Counted from the stretch's first letter, positions 7,596-53,528 are shown. The stretch: DNA of 64,000 nt from an uncultured Neomegalonema sp. (GCA_937911325.1 CALDSD010000093.1:1-64000); one strand, 5' to 3'. The notes: generated from the sequence alone by a model not told the origin. A program made the numbers and translations.

Positions 7596-7660
7596 GTTCG
7601 GGTTATGGGTGCGCTTCCGGACACCGTCAACGTCAGATCGCCGCACCTATCGCCGCGCCC

Positions 7661-7692
7661 CAAAAGTTAAAGAGGCCGCTCAACCGAGCGGC
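7661..7692 (-). terminator. putative rho-independent terminator downstream of the hypothetical gene 7747..8118
   Basis: 7-bp GC-rich stem (GCCGCTC/GAGCGGC, loop AACC) followed on the minus strand by TCTTTAACTTTT. Confidence 0.45.
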
Positions 7693-7746
7693 TTCCTCCC
7701 CCCTTCATCCTGAACTCGCATGTTGCAGAGCGTAGAGGCGGCTTGT

Positions 7747-8118
7747 TCAAGCTGCGAGGGGCATCTCCACAACGTTGCGCGCCGGGGCCGACAGAGGCGC
7801 GGCAGCGGCGTCGCCCGTTAGGAAAACAAGAGCGCCGGAGACCAAACCCGCGACCGCCGAGCGCCCAAAGAGACGCCCTTCAGCCAACTCCGTGAACCCT
7901 TCGGCGTCCGAAGGCGCTTCGGCGATCAGAGCACCCGACGTACGAGCGCGAGCGACCACGTAATCCGGCCAGTCCGCCGACAGATCTTCCTGGGTCGTCA
8001 GGGCCACGCCGCCATCGTCGCCAAACAGGGCGCGAAAGCCCTTTTCAGCCACGGTCGCATCTTCGACGACAACGAGGGAACGGACAGCTGGGGCGGTGGT
8101 CGGCATGCTCACATACAT
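7747..8118 (-). CDS. hypothetical protein
   Basis: 123-aa ORF with a GGAGAA RBS 7-12 nt upstream of the ATG at 8118. No confident family assignment. Confidence 0.5.
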   Translation of the reverse strand: MYVSMPTTAPAVRSLVVVEDATVAEKGFRALFGDDGGVALTTQEDLSADWPDYVVARARTSGALIAEAPSDAEGFTELAEGRLFGRSAVAGLVSGALVFLTGDAAAAPLSAPARNVVEMPLAA

Positions 8119-8219
8119 TGGCTTTCTCCTGCCTCGGCGGGGACTGTCGCCCGCGTTGTTGATGTTTTGTTCCTACATTAACGATGAGAACAAAACAAGA
8201 TGTTTTCTTAATGTTCTCT

Positions 8220-8227
8220 CACTTTTT
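8220..8227. repeat. target-site duplication (left copy)
   Basis: CACTTTTT directly abutting the left IR; identical to 11113..11120. Confidence 0.8.
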
Positions 8228-8250
8228 GGCGATTATATACCTTGCAAACC
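8228..8250. repeat. IS left terminal inverted repeat
   Basis: GGCGATTATATACCTTGCAAACC; its exact reverse complement is at 11090..11112. Confidence 0.85.
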
Positions 8251-8301
8251 CGCTAATGTGATGCCATATCTAGCTTACTGAGAGCACTGGGGTTTTCTGA
8301 A

Positions 8302-9225
8302 ATGTCCATTCTTTCAAAAGCTTACTTCCACGACGAGGCTGCGGCCTTCGAGTACCTGGAGAACATCCTATGGCCGGACGGCCCGGTTTGCCCCCATTGC
8401 GGCGGGTACGAGCGCATTTCCAAGATCAAGGCGAACCCGGAGAAGCGGGTCCGTCAGGGCCTGCACAAGTGCGGTCAGTGCAAAAAGCAGTTCACGGTGC
8501 GTGTCGGCACTGTCTTTGAGGCGTCCAAGGTCGAGCTGCACAAGTGGCTGCAGGCGGTGTACCTGATGTGCGCCAGCAAGAAGGGCATCAGCGCGCACCA
8601 GCTTCACCGCGTTCTGGAGGTCACCTACAAGACCGCATGGTTCATGGCACACCGTATCCGGGAGGCGATGCGTTCGGGAGACCTTGGCCCTTTCGGCCCG
8701 ATGGGCGGTCAGGTCGAGGTGGATGAAACGTTCATCGGCCACGACAAGACCCGCCCGGTTGAGCGCGGCTACCAGCATAAGCACAAGGTTCTAGCGCTTG
8801 TGGACCGCCGCACGGGCAAAGCGAAAACGATGGTCGTTGATCGCCTCGCTAGCCGTGAGTTACTGCCGATCTTGAAAGAGAACATCTCTGAGGAAGCACG
8901 CGTCTACACCGATGAGGCTGGCTGTTACCGCCGCTTGCGCGACCACTTCCTGCAGCTCCAGTCGGTGAAGCATAATGATGGCGAGTACGGTCGTGGCGAG
9001 GTCCACACAATCACCGTCGAGGGCTACTTCTCGATCTTCAAGCGCGGCATGAAGGGTGTCTATCAGCACTGCGCCAAGAAGCACCTGCATCGGTACGTCG
9101 CTGAGTTTGAGTTTCGCTACAATAATCGGGTGGCCAACGGTGTAGGCGACGCCACAAGAACACGAGTTGCATTGGCGGCCGCAGTTGGGAAGCGACTGAC
9201 CTATCGGCGGGCTAACGTCGAATAG
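8302..9225 (+). CDS. IS1595 family transposase (N-terminal zinc ribbon + DDE_Tnp_IS1595/ISXO2-like domain)
   Basis: CPHCG...CGQC zinc ribbon, then VYTDEAGCYRRL...KHLHRYVAEFEFRYNNR, which is typical of IS1595/ISXO2-like transposases. Confidence 0.9.
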   Translation: MSILSKAYFHDEAAAFEYLENILWPDGPVCPHCGGYERISKIKANPEKRVRQGLHKCGQCKKQFTVRVGTVFEASKVELHKWLQAVYLMCASKKGISAHQLHRVLEVTYKTAWFMAHRIREAMRSGDLGPFGPMGGQVEVDETFIGHDKTRPVERGYQHKHKVLALVDRRTGKAKTMVVDRLASRELLPILKENISEEARVYTDEAGCYRRLRDHFLQLQSVKHNDGEYGRGEVHTITVEGYFSIFKRGMKGVYQHCAKKHLHRYVAEFEFRYNNRVANGVGDATRTRVALAAAVGKRLTYRRANVE

Positions 9226-9427
9226 TTGAGTCGGATCAAAGGGATAGCAAAAATATCCACATCTTGTTGGAATCGTTGAACGATTTACCCACATGTAGTA
9301 TGTTCCAATTGGTGGGCCGCCGGGTCGCTCGGGTCGGCAGCGAAAGTGACTGAGGGCGTCCATAGGGACGGTTGGCGCTCTAGGAAGCTGGCCTAGAAGC
9401 CCTTGGATTAGACGAGTCCGGGGCCCA

Positions 9428-10282
9428 CTATTGCCTGGGGTATCCGTAGTATCGGAAGACCTCGGATTGCTCGGGCAGTAGCTTGGCCCCTTTCAGCGAG
9501 GGTAGCAGCTTCACACCGTAGCCGGCAGCGGTGTTTGCAGGGTCGTCTCGATACTTTGCCATTCGTGGGCGCAAGAGCTTCGCGAAGCGCGGATCACAAG
9601 CGCCGGTGTTGTGCACGTCGGATCCTTTAAAAAACGAACTTGCAACGACATCCGCGAGTTGCAGACCAGCGCGTTCGTAATGTGGAAAAACCTTAAGTAG
9701 ATCGTAGTCAATGACCTCCCAGTGTATTTTGCCAAACTTCAGAAAGGTATTTTCGCCCTGATAGCTGATCCAGCGATAGTATGCATTCATCTGTGGGTAA
9801 GAAAGTCCGCCGCGGTTACTGTACTCAATGCGAACCTTTTTCGGCGTTCCGAACTCTTTTTTCGAATGCCAATAGACAAAGTCCGTGACCCGTTCCAAAA
9901 GTACCCTTGTCATCCAGCAATAAAACCAATTTCGAGATGGGATATTTTCGGCGAGAGGATTTCGGTAGCCGCGCATATTCTTCTTATTCGAGCAGACTAC
10001 AAAATATCTTGCGCTAAGCTCTGCTAGGCGCTCACATACAAATACTTTCTTGTTTTCCGAGAGGTTTGAAAAATGCAGGGTGCGTGCTTGGTGTCGCCAA
10101 AGCCCGTCTTTAATGCTTTGAACCCAGTGCTTGACCTCGTCTTCGCGCGAAGCCTTCACGACTACGCCTGAGATCATGAGCCACTCGCTCGAACCATTCT
10201 CGTCGATCGGCCGAATGCGCTTAAGGCCGTCGTCGCCAGCCTCATCGATGTACGCTATATAGTGATAGGGCTTTCCATTCAT
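9428..10282 (-). CDS. DUF3800-like protein (IS passenger)
   Basis: 284 aa. The N-terminal YIAYIDEAGDDG resembles the conserved YIDESG motif of DUF3800. GC content is visibly lower than the surrounding genome. Confidence 0.55.
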   Translation of the reverse strand: MNGKPYHYIAYIDEAGDDGLKRIRPIDENGSSEWLMISGVVVKASREDEVKHWVQSIKDGLWRHQARTLHFSNLSENKKVFVCERLAELSARYFVVCSNKKNMRGYRNPLAENIPSRNWFYCWMTRVLLERVTDFVYWHSKKEFGTPKKVRIEYSNRGGLSYPQMNAYYRWISYQGENTFLKFGKIHWEVIDYDLLKVFPHYERAGLQLADVVASSFFKGSDVHNTGACDPRFAKLLRPRMAKYRDDPANTAAGYGVKLLPSLKGAKLLPEQSEVFRYYGYPRQ

Positions 10283-10293
10283 GGCAGGATTTG

Positions 10294-10467
10294 ATGTCTG
10301 CGGATAAATTGAAAAAGAGTCAACGGGATCGCTTCAAAGAAGCCGCCCACGAGCTGGAGGCCAGTCAAGACGAGGAGCGTTTTAAGGACGCGCTGAGGCA
10401 GATCGGCCAAGCCAAACCACCCGACAAGGACAAAACCAAGGACGACGACCAGAAGCCCGGCCAATGA
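10294..10467 (+). CDS. small highly charged hypothetical protein (57 aa, IS passenger)
   Basis: ATG at 10294 with AGGA 5 nt upstream. Translates MSADKLKKSQRDRFKEAAHELEASQDEERFKDALRQIGQAKPPDKDKTKDDDQKPGQ. It is below the 60-aa cutoff of the ORF track and is preferred over the hydrophobic antisense ORF 10279..10464. Confidence 0.35.
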   Translation: MSADKLKKSQRDRFKEAAHELEASQDEERFKDALRQIGQAKPPDKDKTKDDDQKPGQ

Positions 10468-10495
10468 GCCGGGCTTCGCATTTATGGAGGACCGA

Positions 10496-10681
10496 ATGAC
10501 GGAATGGACCTACCGCGCGCAGGCATGGGTCTGGCGCGCCGTCGCGCAACTAGTGCCGACGTGTTTTTTGCAGTGGGAGCTTCAGCGACGCCCTGGTGTT
10601 GAGGCGATCCGGCGCGGGATCGGCGAGAGAGCCGAGGTCGCGGCAGACGGCCCCTGCACCGTGACGATCAACCGAGACTAG
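10496..10681 (+). CDS. hypothetical protein (61 aa, IS passenger)
   Basis: ATG preceded by GGAGGA (4-nt spacer); Trp-rich. Its stop overlaps the convergent KTSC gene. Confidence 0.3.
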   Translation: MTEWTYRAQAWVWRAVAQLVPTCFLQWELQRRPGVEAIRRGIGERAEVAADGPCTVTINRD

Positions 10682-10860
10682 TAGCGGTCTCGGATATGGT
10701 CGCTGAAGAACGTTCCCTTTGAGGGCGCCCGCAAGAACGCGAGGTAAACGTGCTCCGGCACTCCGTGATAGTCGTACCGTCCGCTCTCATGGAACCAGAT
10801 GGACAGCGTTCCCGCGTCCCATTCGATCCGTCCGATTGCGGAGGAGTTTACAAATGGCAT
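10678..10860 (-). CDS. KTSC domain-containing protein (IS passenger)
   Basis: 60 aa from the ATG at 10860 with an AAGGAGG RBS. IEWDAGTLSIWFHESGRYDYHGVPEHVYLAFLRAPSKGTFFSDHIRDRY matches the KTSC domain. Confidence 0.7.
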   Translation of the reverse strand: MPFVNSSAIGRIEWDAGTLSIWFHESGRYDYHGVPEHVYLAFLRAPSKGTFFSDHIRDRY

Positions 10861-10969
10861 GCTCAAGCCTCCTTTTCCAACATGTTGTGGTTGGGGCTTG
10901 ACGTGAATCGCGCTTTGAATCAGTGTCGTGACGCGGTTCCGCTCCAGCCCCAACCGGCTGGTTCATCTA

Positions 10970-10999
10970 GGTGCTGAGGTGGTTGCACACCTCAGCACC
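10970..10999. other. perfect 12-bp-stem hairpin in subterminal IS region
   Basis: GGTGCTGAGGTG-gttgca-CACCTCAGCACC. No flanking U-tract on either strand. Confidence 0.4.
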
Positions 11000-11089
11000 G
11001 ACATCTTGATAGCACAGAAGAAGAACACGCGGGAGTCCTAGATTCCCGTGTCCACCAGCCTGCAGACTAGATCTGGTACCTCAGGTCTA

Positions 11090-11112
11090 GGTTTGCAAGG
11101 TATATAATCGCC
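11090..11112. repeat. IS right terminal inverted repeat
   Basis: GGTTTGCAAGGTATATAATCGCC, the exact reverse complement of 8228..8250. Confidence 0.85.
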
Positions 11113-11120
11113 CACTTTTT
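11113..11120. repeat. target-site duplication (right copy)
   Basis: CACTTTTT directly abutting the right IR. Confidence 0.8.
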
Positions 11121-11197
11121 TCACCTTGGGGCGAAGCCGACCGATCGTTACGGTCGACACGACACAGCTGACTGACTTTGAGCGACAGGGGGTCTCA

Positions 11198-11905
11198 TTG
11201 GCGCGGATCGTCATATTAACGGGCGCCGGGATTTCGGCGGAGTCGGGACTTGGAACCTTCCGGGATGAAGACGGACTCTGGACCCAATACGACCTTGAAG
11301 ACGTCGCAACGCCCGAGGGGTTCGCCCGCAATCCCGAGCTCGTGCACGACTTCTACAACGCGCGCCGGCGTGGATTGTTGGAGGCACGGCCAAACGCCGC
11401 GCATCACGCGCTGGCGCGTCTTGAGACGGCGCTGCCTGCGCAGGTTCTGATCGTCACTCAGAACATCGACGATCTGCACGAGCAGGCGGGATCAGAAAAC
11501 CTCATCCATATGCATGGCGAGTTGCTGAGAGCCCATTGCACCGAATGCGGGGGCAGCTTTGAGATGCGCGAAGACCTGTCGCCCGAACGCCCATGCCTGC
11601 AATGCCGCGAGATCGGCGGGATGCGGCCATCGGTGGTGTGGTTCGGGGAAATGCCGCTTGAGATGCCGCGGATCTGGAACGAGATCCGAGACGCCGACCT
11701 GTTTGTGTCAATCGGCACCAGCGGAAACGTCTACCCAGCCGCAGCGTTTGTGCAGGACGCCGGTCGCGCAGGAGTAGCGACGCTCGAGCTGAACCTTGAA
11801 AAAACGTCGAACGACTTCGACGAGTCGCGCCAAGGCCAGGCGAGTGTGATCGTCCCGGCCTGGGTCGATGAGGTGTTAAGAGACCTAGAAGGATCCGAGA
11901 TCTAG
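11198..11905 (+). CDS. cobB: NAD-dependent protein deacylase (Sir2 family)
   Basis: [17 protein letters not shown] and a Cys-rich zinc site. Start proposed at the TTG at 11198 ([11 protein letters not shown]), preceded by AGGGGG with a 6-nt spacer. The annotated upstream TTG at 11126 lies only 6 bp from the IS target duplication. Confidence 0.85.
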
Positions 11906-12192
11906 CTCGCTGGCGCGGCCGCTTTCTCGAGATCGCGCTTCACCTTCAGCGCCCGAGGCGACAGTTCTTCGTCGCGAGCCTTCTTCAGGAAAGCGTCAAG
12001 ACCGCCCCGGTGATCGACGGAGCGCAGGGCGTGCGAGGAGATCCGGAACCGGAAGCTACGGCCTAGCGCGTCGCTGTGAAGCGTCACCTGATTGAGATTG
12101 GGCAACCAGCGCCGACGCGTTCTGTTGTTCGCGTGGCTCACATTGTTGCCGGTTTGAACGCCTTTACCAGTCAGCTCGCAGCGACGGGACAT
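11902..12192 (-). CDS. rpmB: 50S ribosomal protein L28
   Basis: [34 protein letters not shown]... Start at the ATG at 12192 with a GAGGGAAAG RBS. It overlaps the cobB stop by 4 bp (convergent). Confidence 0.9.
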
Positions 12193-12353
12193 CGTCTTTC
12201 CCTCTCGGATATAGACCCTTGCGGTCTTCACCGCCCGCGCTTTGACGTTCGGAGACGTCAGCGTCGCGGATCTACTCGTCAAAAACCAAGAACCGCTCCG
12301 GCGAGGCCAGGAGCGGCGTGAGATCGGGTAGCTACTCGTCTCTGAGCGTCAGG

Positions 12354-13379
12354 TCAAGATTTCTGTTCAAGGAAAAGCGCCAAAACCGCGTCGGCGGCGG
12401 CCTCCGGCGAAAGTTCGCCTGCCTTCACCCGCCGTTGCAGATCGGGCAACGCGCTCACGACCGCGGGCGACGCGTCGAAGGACGCCGACAATCCCCGCTC
12501 GATCTCATAACGCATCCAGCGAACGTCTTGCTCGGCGCGACGACCATCGCGCCACCCCTCCGCACGTCGCCAGGAGTCAAGCTTGGCGATACGTTGAAGG
12601 ACGTCTTCGAGCCCTGATCCCGTGACGGCCGAGGCAGGAAGAACGGCCGGGACGTCGTCCGGGTCGCCTGGCCGCTTCCGAAACAGACGCAGCGCGTTCG
12701 CGTAGTCTGACGCTGTCGCCTGCGCCGGGCCCGCAAGCTCGCCGTCCGCCTTGTTGACGACGATAAGATCAGCCATCTCCATCACGCCTCGCTTGACCCC
12801 CTGCAACTCGTCGCCGCCCGCCGGCGCGATCAAGAGCAGGAAGACGTCTGTCATATCCGCGACCATGGTCTCCGATTGACCGACCCCGACTGTCTCGACA
12901 ATGACGACGCCGTACCCAGCCGCCTCGCACAGAAGGATGGCCTCGCGCGTTCGCCGCGCGACGCCGCCAAGCGCGCTCTGAGACGGAGACGGGCGGATGA
13001 ACGCGTTCGCGTCCCGGGAGAGCCGCTCCATCCGCGTCTTGTCGCCCAGGATCGATCCGCCGGTTCGCGCCGAGCTTGGGTCGACCGCCAGCACCGCGAC
13101 GCGCTCGCCTTTCTCGATCAGCAACCGCCCGAAACTCTCGATGAAGGTCGACTTCCCGACGCCGGGCGTCCCGGTCAGACCCAGCCGAACGGCGCCGCCA
13201 GCGTGAGGGTACAGTCTTTCCAGCAGTCTCCGAGCGCGCTCCCGGTGCGACGGATTCGTCGACTCAATGAGTGTAATGGCCCGAGAAAGGGCTCTGCGGT
13301 CGCCTTTTCGCAACGCGTTGGCCCAAGCTGAAAGGTCCTGAAACGGCTGTTGATACTCAGCACCTTGCGTTTCACCCAT
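12354..13379 (-). CDS. meaB: methylmalonyl-CoA mutase-associated GTPase MeaB/ArgK
   Basis: P-loop GTPGVGKST and the full-length MeaB pattern. The ATG at 13379 is chosen over the TTG at 13391. Confidence 0.85.
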   Translation of the reverse strand: MGETQGAEYQQPFQDLSAWANALRKGDRRALSRAITLIESTNPSHRERARRLLERLYPHAGGAVRLGLTGTPGVGKSTFIESFGRLLIEKGERVAVLAVDPSSARTGGSILGDKTRMERLSRDANAFIRPSPSQSALGGVARRTREAILLCEAAGYGVVIVETVGVGQSETMVADMTDVFLLLIAPAGGDELQGVKRGVMEMADLIVVNKADGELAGPAQATASDYANALRLFRKRPGDPDDVPAVLPASAVTGSGLEDVLQRIAKLDSWRRAEGWRDGRRAEQDVRWMRYEIERGLSASFDASPAVVSALPDLQRRVKAGELSPEAAADAVLALFLEQKS

Positions 13380-13436
13380 GGTTTGGCCCAAATTGTTGAT
13401 TTACCGGGGACCAGCATATCGGAGCGAGGTTGCGGG

Positions 13437-14252
13437 ATGCGCAATACTTTTTTGGACCAGAAGACCCATCGGAGATCCTGGTTGAAGATTGCAGCCGCGC
13501 TGGTGCTTGCGGCGGGCGTCTCTGCGACAGGCACGCAGGCCGACGTCAAGAAACCTCGCGAGTTGCGCCTCACCTATGACTTTTACATCGCCGGCCTGCC
13601 GATCGCGAAAGCCAAGCTCAACGCGCGGATCGAAGACGGGTTCTACAGCGCCGAAAGCTCCGGCAAGACGACCGGGATCGCAGCGCTTTTCTTCGGCTCC
13701 AAAGTCGAATCGAGCGGCGGCGGCTTGTTGATGCCGACAGAGGCAGACGCCGTCGACGGCATGGCTCCGCAAGTCTTTGAAGCGTACTTCAAGGTCAAGA
13801 AGAAGGACATGACGCTGCGGATCGCCTATGACGGCGACGCGCCGGAGAGCGTTGAGGCCGAGCCGCCTTTCCGAAAAAAGTCATATGAGATCGACCCCAC
13901 CGAACAACATGGCGCGCTGGATCCGATGTCTGCGATCGTCGCCGCTTACCTGCCGGTGAAATCCGCCGCTGCGGTTTGCAACCGGACCATCACGGTCTTC
14001 GACGGCCGCAAGCGCTTTGACGTTCGCTTCGATGGGTTGCTCGAAGAGTACGAGGAAGACGGCGCACGCTATGTCGAGTGCGCCGGAACCTACTTCCGGA
14101 TCGGCGGGTTCAAGAAGAAGCACATGACGCCAGAACGTCGAACCTATCCGTTCAAGATCCGGTTTCGGATGAACAAGGAAGGCGCGCCGCTGCCGGTGCG
14201 CATCTGGGGCGACACTGATTTCGGCACAGCGGTGGCCTTGCTGCGCGACTGA
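13437..14252 (+). CDS. DUF3108 domain-containing secreted protein
   Basis: Signal peptide (MRNTFLDQKTHRRSWLKIAAALVLAAG) and DUF3108-like repeats (YDFYIAGLPIAKAKL...). GGAGCGAGG RBS. Confidence 0.65.
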   Translation: MRNTFLDQKTHRRSWLKIAAALVLAAGVSATGTQADVKKPRELRLTYDFYIAGLPIAKAKLNARIEDGFYSAESSGKTTGIAALFFGSKVESSGGGLLMPTEADAVDGMAPQVFEAYFKVKKKDMTLRIAYDGDAPESVEAEPPFRKKSYEIDPTEQHGALDPMSAIVAAYLPVKSAAAVCNRTITVFDGRKRFDVRFDGLLEEYEEDGARYVECAGTYFRIGGFKKKHMTPERRTYPFKIRFRMNKEGAPLPVRIWGDTDFGTAVALLRD

Positions 14253-14428
14253 GGTCTGAACCTGCGCAACCTGCGGGATTCCGCAGGTTCGCTTTTGCAA
14301 GTCTCTTCCTATCTCTGCCTCTCCCGAGCCGAAGACTTCTTCGAGCCTCGGCGGGCGCGGGTCCAAACCGCCCCGGCGCGGGTCGCTGTGCGTCCCCGTG
14401 TACGAAGGTCGAAGTGGTGGAACGGGAT

Positions 14429-14504
14429 GCGGATATAGCTCAGAGGTTAGAGCATCAGGTTCAGGATCTGACGGACGCGGGTTCGACTCCCGTTATCTGC
14501 TCCA
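14429..14504 (+). tRNA. tRNA, short-variable-arm cloverleaf; hand-folded anticodon CAG (identity uncertain)
   Basis: GCGGATA acceptor with G3:U70, GCTC/GAGC D-stem, TCAGG/TCTGA anticodon stem with loop TTCAGGA, GGTTCGACTCC T-loop, discriminator U then CCA. Confidence 0.6.
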
Positions 14505-14579
14505 TGGATCGTAGCTCAGTGGTAGAGCAACAGATTGCTAATCTGTGAGGCGAAGGTTCGAGTCCTTCCTATCCAGCCA
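14505..14579 (+). tRNA. tRNA, short-variable-arm cloverleaf; hand-folded anticodon GCU (Asn-like body; identity uncertain)
   Basis: U1:A72 acceptor (TGGATCG / CTATCCA, one mismatch), GAGCAAC, ACAGA/TCTGT anticodon stem with loop TTGCTAA, GGTTCGAGTCC T-loop, discriminator G then CCA. It directly abuts the previous tRNA. Confidence 0.55.
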
Positions 14580-15012
14580 GGGCATTCAAACGCCCCCCAG
14601 CCTTTCACGCTGGTCGAAGAAAATGGGTTTCCGAGGTTCGGCGAGGTCTCGCTGAACAACGCCGCGGCGCCTATCCCAAAGGTGAAAACCAGCGGGTGAC
14701 GCGCCAAGGCCGAGGACGGCGAGGCCGCGCGCTGCGCGCCTCGTGCGTTGGATGATGACGAAGGCGACCATCGGTCAGGTTGAGGCGCTCGCGCCGAGAT
14801 CCCGCCGAGGGTCCCCGACGCCCGCTCTTCGGCGCCCGCTCTCAGGGCGTCAAAGCCGAACCTCGGAGCTCTTCGAATGAAGTTTCAAAGATCGCCGGTC
14901 CAAACGGCGAGATCCGGACGCGGGCGCCGCCCAACTCCGACCCGACGCAACCAGATGGAGACAACCTCAGTCATGCCAAACGCGCCTTGAGCGAACACGC
15001 AAGACGAACTGA

Positions 15013-16182
15013 ATGGATGAAGCGATGACACAGACACGATTTTGGGACGCCGTCTTCGGCGTTCGCCGCATCACATTGACCGAGAACCAGCGCGCCCTCG
15101 CGCTGAAGCAGGGTCGCTTCATGAGCATCCTGGGTCCCGGCGAACACTCTTTCGCCGACCCGCGGGGCCGGATCACGTTTGAGATACACGATCTCAATCG
15201 GCCGGAGTTCGTTTCTGCGTACGAGCGGGCGTTGCTGCGCGAGCGGCCGGATCTGGCCGAGCGCCACCTGACGATCGCAGAGACCGGCGTCGAAGAGATC
15301 GGCCTGGTCGAGCGTGAGGGCCGACTGTTCGGCATCCTCAAGCCGGAGGGTCGTTCCGTGTTCTGGACCGACGCGGGTCCGTGGAAGATCGAGCGCGTCA
15401 ACGTCGGCGAGGCCCTTGAGGTCGCCCCGACGCTGCAGCGGCGTCTCGAGCGCTTTGGCCAGATGGACAAGGTGATCCGCTTCCACGTGCAGGCGGAGCA
15501 GGCAGGTCTTCTGTTCGTCGACGGCGCCTACCAGCGCACGCTGCCGGCCGGCGCGCACATGTTCTGGAACGTGGGCCGCAAGGTCGAGGTGAAGATCGTC
15601 GATCTTCGTCGGCGTTCGCTGGACGTGACCGGTCAGGAGATCCTGACCCGCGACCGCGTGTCGATCCGGGTCAACCTCGCGGCCGAGTACCGCGTGGCGG
15701 ATCCGGTGACGGCGGTGACGGAGGTGACCGACTTCGCCGACGCGCTGTACCGTGCGGTGCAGTATGCGTTCCGCAAGACGCTGGGCGCGATGACGCTCGA
15801 CGAGATCCTCGAGAAGAAGGTCTCCGTCGACGCCGAGGCGGCCGAGCGGGTGCGCGCGGACATGGCGGAGATCGGCCTGCAGGTCGGTGAGATCGCGTTG
15901 AAGGACGTGGTCCTGCCGGGCGAGATGCGGGAGATCCTGAACCAGGTGGTGGCGGCGGAGAAGGAGGCTCAGGCCAATGTCATCCGCCGGCGCGAGGAGA
16001 CAGCGGCGACGCGGTCTCTTCTGAACACCGCCAAGGTGATGGACGAGAACCCGACGATGCTGCGCCTGAAGGAGCTCGAGGCGCTGGAGACGATCTCCGG
16101 CAACGTCGAGAGCCTGGTCGTGCACAACGGCCCGCGCGGCCTGCTGAACGACATCGTTCAGCTCTCCGAGCGGAAGGAGTAG
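15013..16182 (+). CDS. SPFH/band-7 (slipin/stomatin-like) domain protein
   Basis: 389 aa with an SPFH-like core (RVNLAAEYRVADP...) and a C-terminal coiled-coil region (EKEAQANVIRRREE). Confidence 0.65.
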   Translation: MDEAMTQTRFWDAVFGVRRITLTENQRALALKQGRFMSILGPGEHSFADPRGRITFEIHDLNRPEFVSAYERALLRERPDLAERHLTIAETGVEEIGLVEREGRLFGILKPEGRSVFWTDAGPWKIERVNVGEALEVAPTLQRRLERFGQMDKVIRFHVQAEQAGLLFVDGAYQRTLPAGAHMFWNVGRKVEVKIVDLRRRSLDVTGQEILTRDRVSIRVNLAAEYRVADPVTAVTEVTDFADALYRAVQYAFRKTLGAMTLDEILEKKVSVDAEAAERVRADMAEIGLQVGEIALKDVVLPGEMREILNQVVAAEKEAQANVIRRREETAATRSLLNTAKVMDENPTMLRLKELEALETISGNVESLVVHNGPRGLLNDIVQLSERKE

Positions 16183-53452: not shown

Positions 53453-53528
53453 TGGTGGAGCCGAGGGGAATCGAACCCCTGACCTCTACGATGCGAACGT
53501 AGCGCTCTCCCAGCTGAGCTACGGCCCC
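53453..53528 (-). tRNA. tRNA-Ala (anticodon CGC)
   Basis: Reverse complement reads GGGGCCGTAGCTCAGCTGGGAGAGCGCTACGTTCGCATCGTAGAGGTCAGGGGTTCGATTCCCCTCGGCTCCACCA. It has G3:U70, a TTCGCAT anticodon loop and discriminator A. Confidence 0.85.

Follow-up and report, generated by a model that had tools for sequence, protein, structure and literature searches.

What two tRNA-like sequences may be doing when they abut one another directly and carry anticodons that do not fit their bodies is the question raised by positions 14429-14579 of a 64,000-nucleotide stretch of DNA from an uncultured alphaproteobacterium (the window, from the first letter of which all coordinates are counted unless another locus is named). 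A preceding description, made from the sequence alone and referred to here as the sequence-only reading, proposed that these two cloverleafs with CAG and GCU anticodons are either mis-sense or recoding tRNAs or decaying copies, an assembly error at position 14538 being kept in mind as a possible source of the anomaly.

On the plus strand, ARAGORN calls a tRNA-Leu(cag) at 14429-14504 and, with zero spacer after it, a tRNA-Ser(gct) at 14505-14579, and the same pair of full cloverleafs is called with the Rfam tRNA model, at 65.9 bits for the first (module 1) and 67.8 bits for the second (module 2), against a gathering score of 29 (E ~1e-12). These scores are far above chance. Module 1 possesses a 7-bp acceptor stem (GCGGATA/TATCTGC) with a G3:U70 pair, a U73 discriminator and an encoded CCA, and its anticodon loop UUCAGGA reads CAG. 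Module 2, which starts directly 3' of the module 1 CCA, also has a 7-bp acceptor stem (with U1:A72), followed by G73 and an encoded CCA, and its anticodon loop UUGCUAA reads GCU. The stems, discriminators, CCA ends and loops listed in the sequence-only reading were each confirmed on the sequence, to which has to be added a C6·U67 mismatch in module 2 that had been overlooked. Leu and Ser tRNAs are long-variable-arm types. With a variable region of 5 nt in both, neither module has a body of this type, and no other fold or ordinary isotype obtained with ARAGORN or Rfam rescues the anticodons, so that the misfit between anticodon and short-arm body is a genuine property of the pair. The suspected assembly error at 14538 is excluded, since three assemblies, made independently from different samples (Logan SRR22824307, NCBI GCA_038751425.1 and ENA ERZ23487454), agree at 100% over the 171 nt of 14420-14590.

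The only ordinary tRNA of the window, a tRNA-Ala(CGC) located on the minus strand at 53453-53528, has a GC content of 64%, compared to 50-55% for the two modules. The assignment of a body type from the similarity with E. coli tRNAs gave weak and inconsistent results (Thr, Arg, Lys) and was abandoned; consequently, no claim is made here that the modules originate from tRNA-Ala or tRNA-Asn.

The pair is located in the 760 nt that separate a DUF3108 gene (13350-14252) from a Band_7/SPFH gene (15013/15025-16182), in a neighbourhood of housekeeping genes identified by Pfam as LepA, Sir2, MeaB, malic enzyme and methylmalonyl-CoA mutase. Orthologous contigs, retrieved via the flanking DUF3108 protein, keep both the synteny and the abutting pair, and carry changed anticodons. 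A relative with an 81% identical DUF3108 protein has UAG and GCA, another at 67% identity (L009) has CAG and GCC with an A33 in the second loop, and relatives at 40-53% identity associate a module 1 reading CAG or UUG with a degenerate module 2, the loops of which read GUA, UAC or CAU. The intergenic region is conserved in blocks flanking the pair on both sides.

These replacements bear directly on the idea that the modules are real decoding tRNAs of this clade, mistranslating or recoding CUG and AGY in a way that resembles the Streptomyces tRNAProX family. Taken alone, the window genes would suit such a function, since they form perfect cloverleafs with 7-nt loops, U33, a purine at position 37 and an encoded CCA, the G37 following CAG as in CUN decoders. 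However, the nearest relatives display UAG+GCA and CAG+GCC, the A33 of L009 departs from the usual U33, and module 1 loops range from 4 to 9 nt among relatives. Moreover, no synthetase or synthetase paralogue was detected with Pfam among the main ORFs from 5.8 to 22.8 kb, i.e., over some 8 kb on each side, and CUG is likely to be among the commonest codons of the genome (~80% GC3), which would make its misreading costly.

The same arrangement extends far beyond the window clade. A T-arm...T-arm DNA pattern applied to species-representative genomes was too general, the matches listed consisting mostly of ordinary tandem tRNAs, and the arrangement was recognized, among the matches listed, in Mesorhizobium, Rhizobium, a Hyphomicrobiales MAG, Novosphingobium and a Rhodospirillaceae MAG. 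Downstream of the element, the Mesorhizobium and Hyphomicrobiales MAG loci possess a gene for an orthologous Band_7 protein of ~385 aa. Depending on the lineage, the upstream gene encodes a DUF3108 protein (window), a His_Phos_1 protein (Mesorhizobium) or an alcohol dehydrogenase (Hyphomicrobiales MAG). Since the upstream gene differs by lineage and the SPFH gene is constant, the element is linked to the SPFH gene; it lies 300-550 nt upstream of the gene for this ~385-aa soluble slipin/SPFH protein, on the same strand. Eighty metagenomic loci were additionally retrieved by alignment of the SPFH protein, 69 of them with at least 700 nt of upstream sequence. At least one same-strand ARAGORN call occurs 250-650 nt upstream of the SPFH gene in 48 of these 69 loci, two calls occur in 26, a T-loop motif in 62 and an opposite-strand ARAGORN call upstream of the gene in none, all counts that overstate the number of independent events, the metagenomic sequences being mutually related. 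More distant SPFH orthologues (42-48% identity) are found in Acidobacteriota (Bryobacteraceae, Acidobacteriaceae), the loci of which, inspected by eye, show apparently the same 5' domain (see below) and, as their only tRNA-like module, a full one that resembles module 2. Some loci contain one module and a separate T-arm hairpin. Overall, the association is found in Alphaproteobacteria with two modules, or with one module accompanied by such a hairpin, and in Acidobacteriota with a single module.

The genes located right after the SPFH gene vary as well, e.g., a ParD/ParE toxin-antitoxin pair in the syntenic locus L001 (8966-9577) and a TIR_2-domain protein in L010 (6496-7821), and the SPFH gene with its leader thus behaves as a unit of one gene. 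None of the SPFH, DUF3108 and DUF3800 proteins matched a defence system with PADLOC, and Sir2 had only two weak matches (E ~0.006-0.008). The DUF3800 gene (9428-10282, minus strand) belongs to a stretch at 7650-12300, between LepA and Sir2, with a GC content of 55-58% versus ~64% elsewhere, which also contains an IS1595-family transposase (8302-9225). As both the transposase and the DUF3800 gene are missing from L001, this low-GC stretch looks like a recent insertion. Several RNA motifs named after DUF3800 exist in Rfam, none of which matched at the DUF3800 stretch of the window.

What the sequence-only reading had not seen are the surroundings of the pair, namely an RNA that is large, structured and conserved and is linked to the SPFH gene located downstream. 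MAFFT-based alignments of 47 sequences, covering the whole element (alignment A5) or the 5' domain (alignment A7), were folded with RNAalifold, and both cloverleafs were recovered together with conserved flanking structures. The two cloverleafs are thus tRNA-shaped modules of a conserved RNA of ~550 nt (~14338-14869), composed, in this order, of a 5' three-way domain, module 1, module 2, two hairpins and a 3' domain of ~240 nt. The 5' domain (14338-14415) is built from an outer helix (14338-14349 with 14405-14415) enclosing hairpin A (14353-14374) and hairpin B (14376-14401). In alignment A7, 91.7% of the cells are paired, compared to 35-53% with slid partners, the covariation score reaches 0.609 versus ~0.1, the observed score being attained by none of 500 shuffles, and compensatory changes affect 20 of the 25 pairs. 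The core motif of this domain, GGTGCGG-hairpin-CCGYATGCC, is also discernible by eye in the acidobacterial variants. The two hairpins that follow module 2 occur at 14580-14595 (GGGC...GCCC, recognized by eye in the aligned sequences) and at 14597-14613 (CCAGC...GCTGG). The latter belongs to the consensus structure (columns 390-392 with 400-402 of A5), with 93% pairing and compensatory changes at all three consensus pairs.

The 3' domain (14627-14869) is closed by a long-range helix of 11 bp (14627-14637 with 14859-14869) which encloses ~240 nt of nested helices, where unpaired motifs, e.g., GGAUGAYG and CCCGCUC, are conserved too. The non-tRNA helices of A5, located for the greater part in this domain, show pairing in 90.9% of the cells, compared to 36-51% when the partners are slid, a covariation score of 0.525 (0.08-0.15 in the controls, 0 of 500 shuffles reaching the observed score) and compensatory changes at 33 of the 38 pairs. 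The element thus displays what is generally expected from a structured RNA, i.e., a structure supported by compensatory changes above controls. Two T-loop-like hairpins with a GUCCAAA loop, at 14893-14909 (CGCCG-GTCCAAA-CGGCG) and 14360-14372 (GCGG-GTCCAAA-CCGC), are specific to the window clade; they might dock on the tRNA-like elbows.

The comparison of the aligned modules reveals what selection keeps in them. It maintains the tRNA body, namely U8, A14, G18G19, the T-loop and the covarying stems. Neither the anticodon nor the discriminator is maintained, and many lineages have not kept the acceptor end either. In both modules the elbow, formed by the D-arm and T-arm columns, is invariant, and all module stems covary among relatives. 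In module 1, the 3:70 pair is G:U in 29 of the 47 sequences, G:U being rare at the other acceptor pairs, and NCCA is encoded in 35 of 45, with any base as the discriminator. The module 1 loop comprises 7 nt in 20 sequences, 6 nt in 14, 5 nt in 5, 4 nt in 5, 8 nt in 2 and 9 nt in 1, the loops of 4 nt consisting of GNRA tetraloops (GCGA or GUGA). Locus L008 offers an extreme case, with a module 1 (2845-2938) of 94 nt that has received a long insert in its variable/anticodon region, possesses a poor acceptor stem and still scores 42.7 bits as a tRNA, indicating that the module tolerates large insertions. In module 2, most of the sampled Alphaproteobacteria have a strongly covarying acceptor stem of only 4 bp and no CCA; the 7-bp stem is found in the window clade and in Acidobacteriota, together with NCCA in the former and in several loci of the latter.

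The module 2 loop has 7 nt in 46 of the 47 sequences, with U33 and A37/A38 mostly kept, and yet it contains 19 different triplets, GCU, GCC or GCA in the window clade. Across loci, at least 19 triplets are represented overall, including UUA, which makes ARAGORN call module 1 a 'tRNA-Stop (tta)' in L158 (477-549) and L161 (304-379). At the metagenomic loci, ARAGORN similarly reports 'anticodons' such as GUU, GAU, UGU, UUU, ACG, GAA, UUG, GCA, AAG and AUU, and even 'anticodons' of 2 or 4 bases. With respect to within-clade divergence, positions 34 and 35 of module 2 rank second and first, respectively, out of 544 columns (0.65-0.67), and the anticodon diverges at 0.55, versus 0.28 for the four-fold sites of the SPFH gene and 0.14 for the anticodon stem. 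Because other loop columns diverge nearly as fast as positions 34 and 35, the anticodon is regarded as unconstrained, and diversifying selection is not claimed. A pairing in cis of the module 2 anticodon with some 'specifier' was considered too and rejected within the region tested, where neither a covarying column nor an excess of complementary k-mers revealed a partner.

A triplet that keeps pace with the most rapidly evolving sites of the element is not what a decoding tRNA would be expected to show. Conserved modules within a slipin-linked RNA, associated with unselected anticodons, argue against recoding or mistranslating tRNAs as well as against decaying copies. The mis-sense or recoding function put forward earlier is therefore not supported, orthologous copies carrying other anticodons even among close relatives, and the decoding of CUG and AGY by the pair appears very improbable. 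Decaying tRNA pseudogenes, or an artefact of assembly, might be invoked to explain the 6:67 mismatch of module 2 and the odd anticodons. This is hardly credible in view of the identical sequence in three independent assemblies, the place of the element kept in two phyla, the invariant elbow nucleotides and the compensatory changes in all stems, and the proposal of decaying copies falls with it.

The gene to which the element is tied (15025-16182, plus strand) encodes a slipin-family SPFH/Band_7 protein of 385 aa, with an alternative in-frame ATG at 15013; in an exact-sequence look-up, the 385-aa form was matched and the 389-aa ORF was without a match. The protein contains a Band_7 domain and a stomatin-like fold, lacks a transmembrane helix, and is 56-84% identical among lineages, the slipin orthologues being numbered in thousands. 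Its three N-terminal β modules, SPFH core and long helix follow one another in the same order as in the major vault protein (MVP), to which Foldseek aligns ~470 columns, the best matches being stomatins. Solved SPFH structures form rings or cages, according to their descriptions. On the basis of these structural comparisons, the protein could assemble into a miniature vault-like or stomatin-like cage devoid of membrane anchor.

Several candidate signals surround the element. The hairpin at 14270-14296, CCTGCGGGATTCCGCAGG followed by TTCGCTTTT, is kept in L001 and L009 and probably represents the terminator of the DUF3108 gene, although it was missed by a strict terminator scan. The same strict scan found no terminator-like site between the pair and the SPFH gene. 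A promoter-like stretch on the plus strand (14286-14314) was delineated by alignment (A5) with a motif conserved in Mesorhizobium, CTTGCG-N17-CTATAG, which occurs ~105 nt upstream of module 1; its -10-like CTATCT lies at 14309-14314, the -35 position is weak in the window genome, and a strict scan for the sigma-70 consensus found no promoter at the element. From this alignment, transcription would start at ~14320, right after the DUF3108 terminator hairpin and ~105 nt before module 1. Further downstream, a mini upstream ORF on the plus strand (14973-14990, ATGCCAAACGCGCCTTGA, reading MPNAP before the stop) recurs in relatives as a start codon, one to four further codons and a stop codon (ATGACGTGA, ATGAGTTGA, GTGACGTAG, ATGCCGCCCTAG). 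The Rhizobiales version is reduced to a start, a single further codon and a stop (ATGACGTGA, ATGAGTTGA, GTGACGTAG, ATGACTTAG), and that of L008 reads MPP. The mini-uORF is placed 20-60 nt before the SPFH start in the window, L008, L046, L064, L077, L079, L121 and several metagenome loci, and could be a translational control point.

The best explanation for all these observations, to which a probability of about 0.55 is given, is a shape-based tRNA mimic carried by a co-transcribed leader and probably handled by tRNA-processing enzymes, the modules acting, as we infer, by their shape and not by decoding. The leader would be transcribed together with the SPFH mRNA, and the elbows would be recognised by the tRNA-processing machinery, with RNase P cutting on the 5' side of module 1. 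A next cut, made either by RNase P or by RNase E at the zero-spacer NCCA junction or immediately past it, would generate the 3' end of module 1. Such a processing would yield an RNA comprising the 5' domain as well as a module 1 of tRNA size with a CCA end, and the remaining mRNA would begin with the tightly folded module 2 and the 3' domain, which would determine how stable this mRNA is and how it is translated. An additional level of translational control is suggested by the conserved mini-uORF. In the window clade, where both modules are complete with CCA, the two of them may be set free. The CAG and GCU triplets would simply correspond to the current state of unconstrained loop positions. 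As a counterpoint to processing, the module 2 of most lineages, with its 4-bp acceptor stem and without CCA, would be a poor RNase P substrate.

Nor does a pure processing handle explain why module 1 has kept G3:U70 (~60%) and NCCA (~78%), which hints at charging by the alanyl-tRNA synthetase AlaRS. Module 1, once released, might in this respect be a non-ribosomal aminoacyl carrier, charged with alanine by AlaRS via G3:U70 in the way of tmRNA. AlaRS does not read the anticodon, and its indifference fits the free loop of module 1, as the 7-bp acceptor stem with NCCA in 35 of the 45 copies, and the G:U at 3:70 in 29 of 47 with its rarity at the other acceptor pairs, fit a substrate of the enzyme. 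However, G3:U70 is lost among close relatives (A:U in L135 versus G:U in L204) and replaced by C·A or G:C within Mesorhizobium, any base serves as the discriminator, and no aminoacyl-transferase gene is linked to the element at the window or at the relatives' loci that were scanned; the G:U may also be a relic of an ancestral tRNA. Such a carrier is considered unlikely.

A multi-domain RNA of ~550 nt greatly exceeds the ordinary cis-regulators in size, an argument in favour of a function in trans or as the partner of a protein. The entire RNA, or parts of it, may be viewed as a dedicated partner that binds the oligomer of the soluble slipin and serves it as a scaffold, a cargo or a regulator, in which case the binding of the slipin to its own leader would provide autoregulation as well. 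Such a partnership finds precedents in Ro60 with its Y RNA YrlA and in the vault RNA of vault particles, and it agrees with the co-occurrence of RNA and protein in two phyla while neighbour genes change, with the large, multi-domain and strongly covarying character of the RNA, with a protein conserved at 56-84% identity without membrane anchor and with the rings or cages formed by solved SPFH proteins. On the other hand, vault RNA is bound via TEP1 and not via MVP (10.1101/872010), and a leader explains the terminator-free adjacency equally well. The partner role is therefore put forward as a tentative possibility. A more specific form of it, in which RNA and slipin constitute an unrecognised bacterial ribonucleoprotein, i.e., a stomatin- or vault-like cage or ring equipped with one or two tRNA-shaped handles, one of them possibly alanylated through G3:U70, is more doubtful.

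Whichever role applies, the element points to a large and widespread class of structured RNA absent from Rfam 15, and its conserved tie to tRNA mimicry provides a first hint at the function of the soluble slipins of bacteria. It also represents a hazard for annotation, since tRNA finders call the modules as genes with arbitrary anticodons. Such calls include short-arm 'Leu' and 'Ser' tRNAs and even UUA 'suppressors' which can be mistaken for ochre suppressors, with the risk of contaminating tRNA gene sets and surveys of genetic-code changes. If the processing of the leader proves true, a conserved bacterial mRNA leader would be built around RNase P substrates. If the ribonucleoprotein proves true, an SPFH assembly conserved from Alphaproteobacteria to Acidobacteriota would be connected with tRNA mimicry, or with the state of tRNA processing and charging in the cell.

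With respect to known systems, Rfam 15 recognizes nothing beyond tRNA at the gathering cut-off over the whole window, and a search of 14150-15100 at E<=10 gave only tRNA and sub-threshold noise, without any T-box, riboswitch, GOLLD, ROOL, HEARO or raiA. No description of the element was found in the searchable literature, which omits most papers from subscription journals. The modules share with canonical tRNA (RF00005) the cloverleaf, the U8/A14/G18G19/T-loop nucleotides, the encoded CCA and scores of 66-68 bits, and differ from it by an unconserved anticodon, a varying loop length, an often truncated acceptor and their inclusion in a larger RNA. In this last respect they recall YrlA, a larger non-coding RNA with a tRNA-like module encoded beside its protein partner Ro60/Rsr (PMC4201824), with which the element has in common the mimicry of the tRNA elbow and acceptor and the location beside a protein gene. 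In contrast to YrlA, the model of which (gathering score 69) gives the element only 21.8 bits, there are here two modules, each with a full anticodon arm, the neighbour is an SPFH (Band_7) and not a TROVE protein, and no Ro-binding stem was identified. The vault particle, also a ribonucleoprotein, is approached by the SPFH protein in its order of β-repeats, 'shoulder' and long helix and by the structural match to MVP, but the protein is half the size of MVP, its best matches are stomatins, and its RNA partner is putative. The bacterial homologues of MVP are other proteins, occurring in Myxococcales, Cytophagales and Oscillatoriales (10.1101/872010).

GOLLD and ROOL are, like the element, large and ornate structured RNAs associated with tRNA sequences, but they gave no Rfam match at E up to 10 and have another architecture, host range and gene association. 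Mimicry of tRNA is also common to the element and the viral tRNA-like structures. The resemblance to tmRNA lies in a tRNA-like domain with G3:U70, which is joined to a large structured RNA and does not decode through an anticodon; unlike tmRNA, the element has no tag ORF, module 1 possesses both a D arm and an anticodon arm, and processing would be required for its internal CCA to become terminal. No tmRNA was called by ARAGORN or matched by Rfam in the window. The Streptomyces tRNAProX, credited to Vargas-Rodriguez et al. in 2021, reportedly possesses a fixed mismatched anticodon and adjoins a dedicated ProRS paralogue; the element shares the mismatch between anticodon and body, but its triplet drifts and no synthetase gene is linked to it. 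The tRNA-like processing signals, such as the mascRNA of MALAT1, and the tRNA-mRNA co-transcripts, e.g., that of the E. coli tufB operon, come close to the leader favoured here. In both cases tRNA-shaped elements belong to a longer transcript and RNase P would define the ends, a CCA-ended small RNA being in the present case a possible by-product of the putative processing. The element stands apart from them in that its tRNA-shaped modules reside in a bacterial 5' leader, where they are flanked by two further conserved domains.
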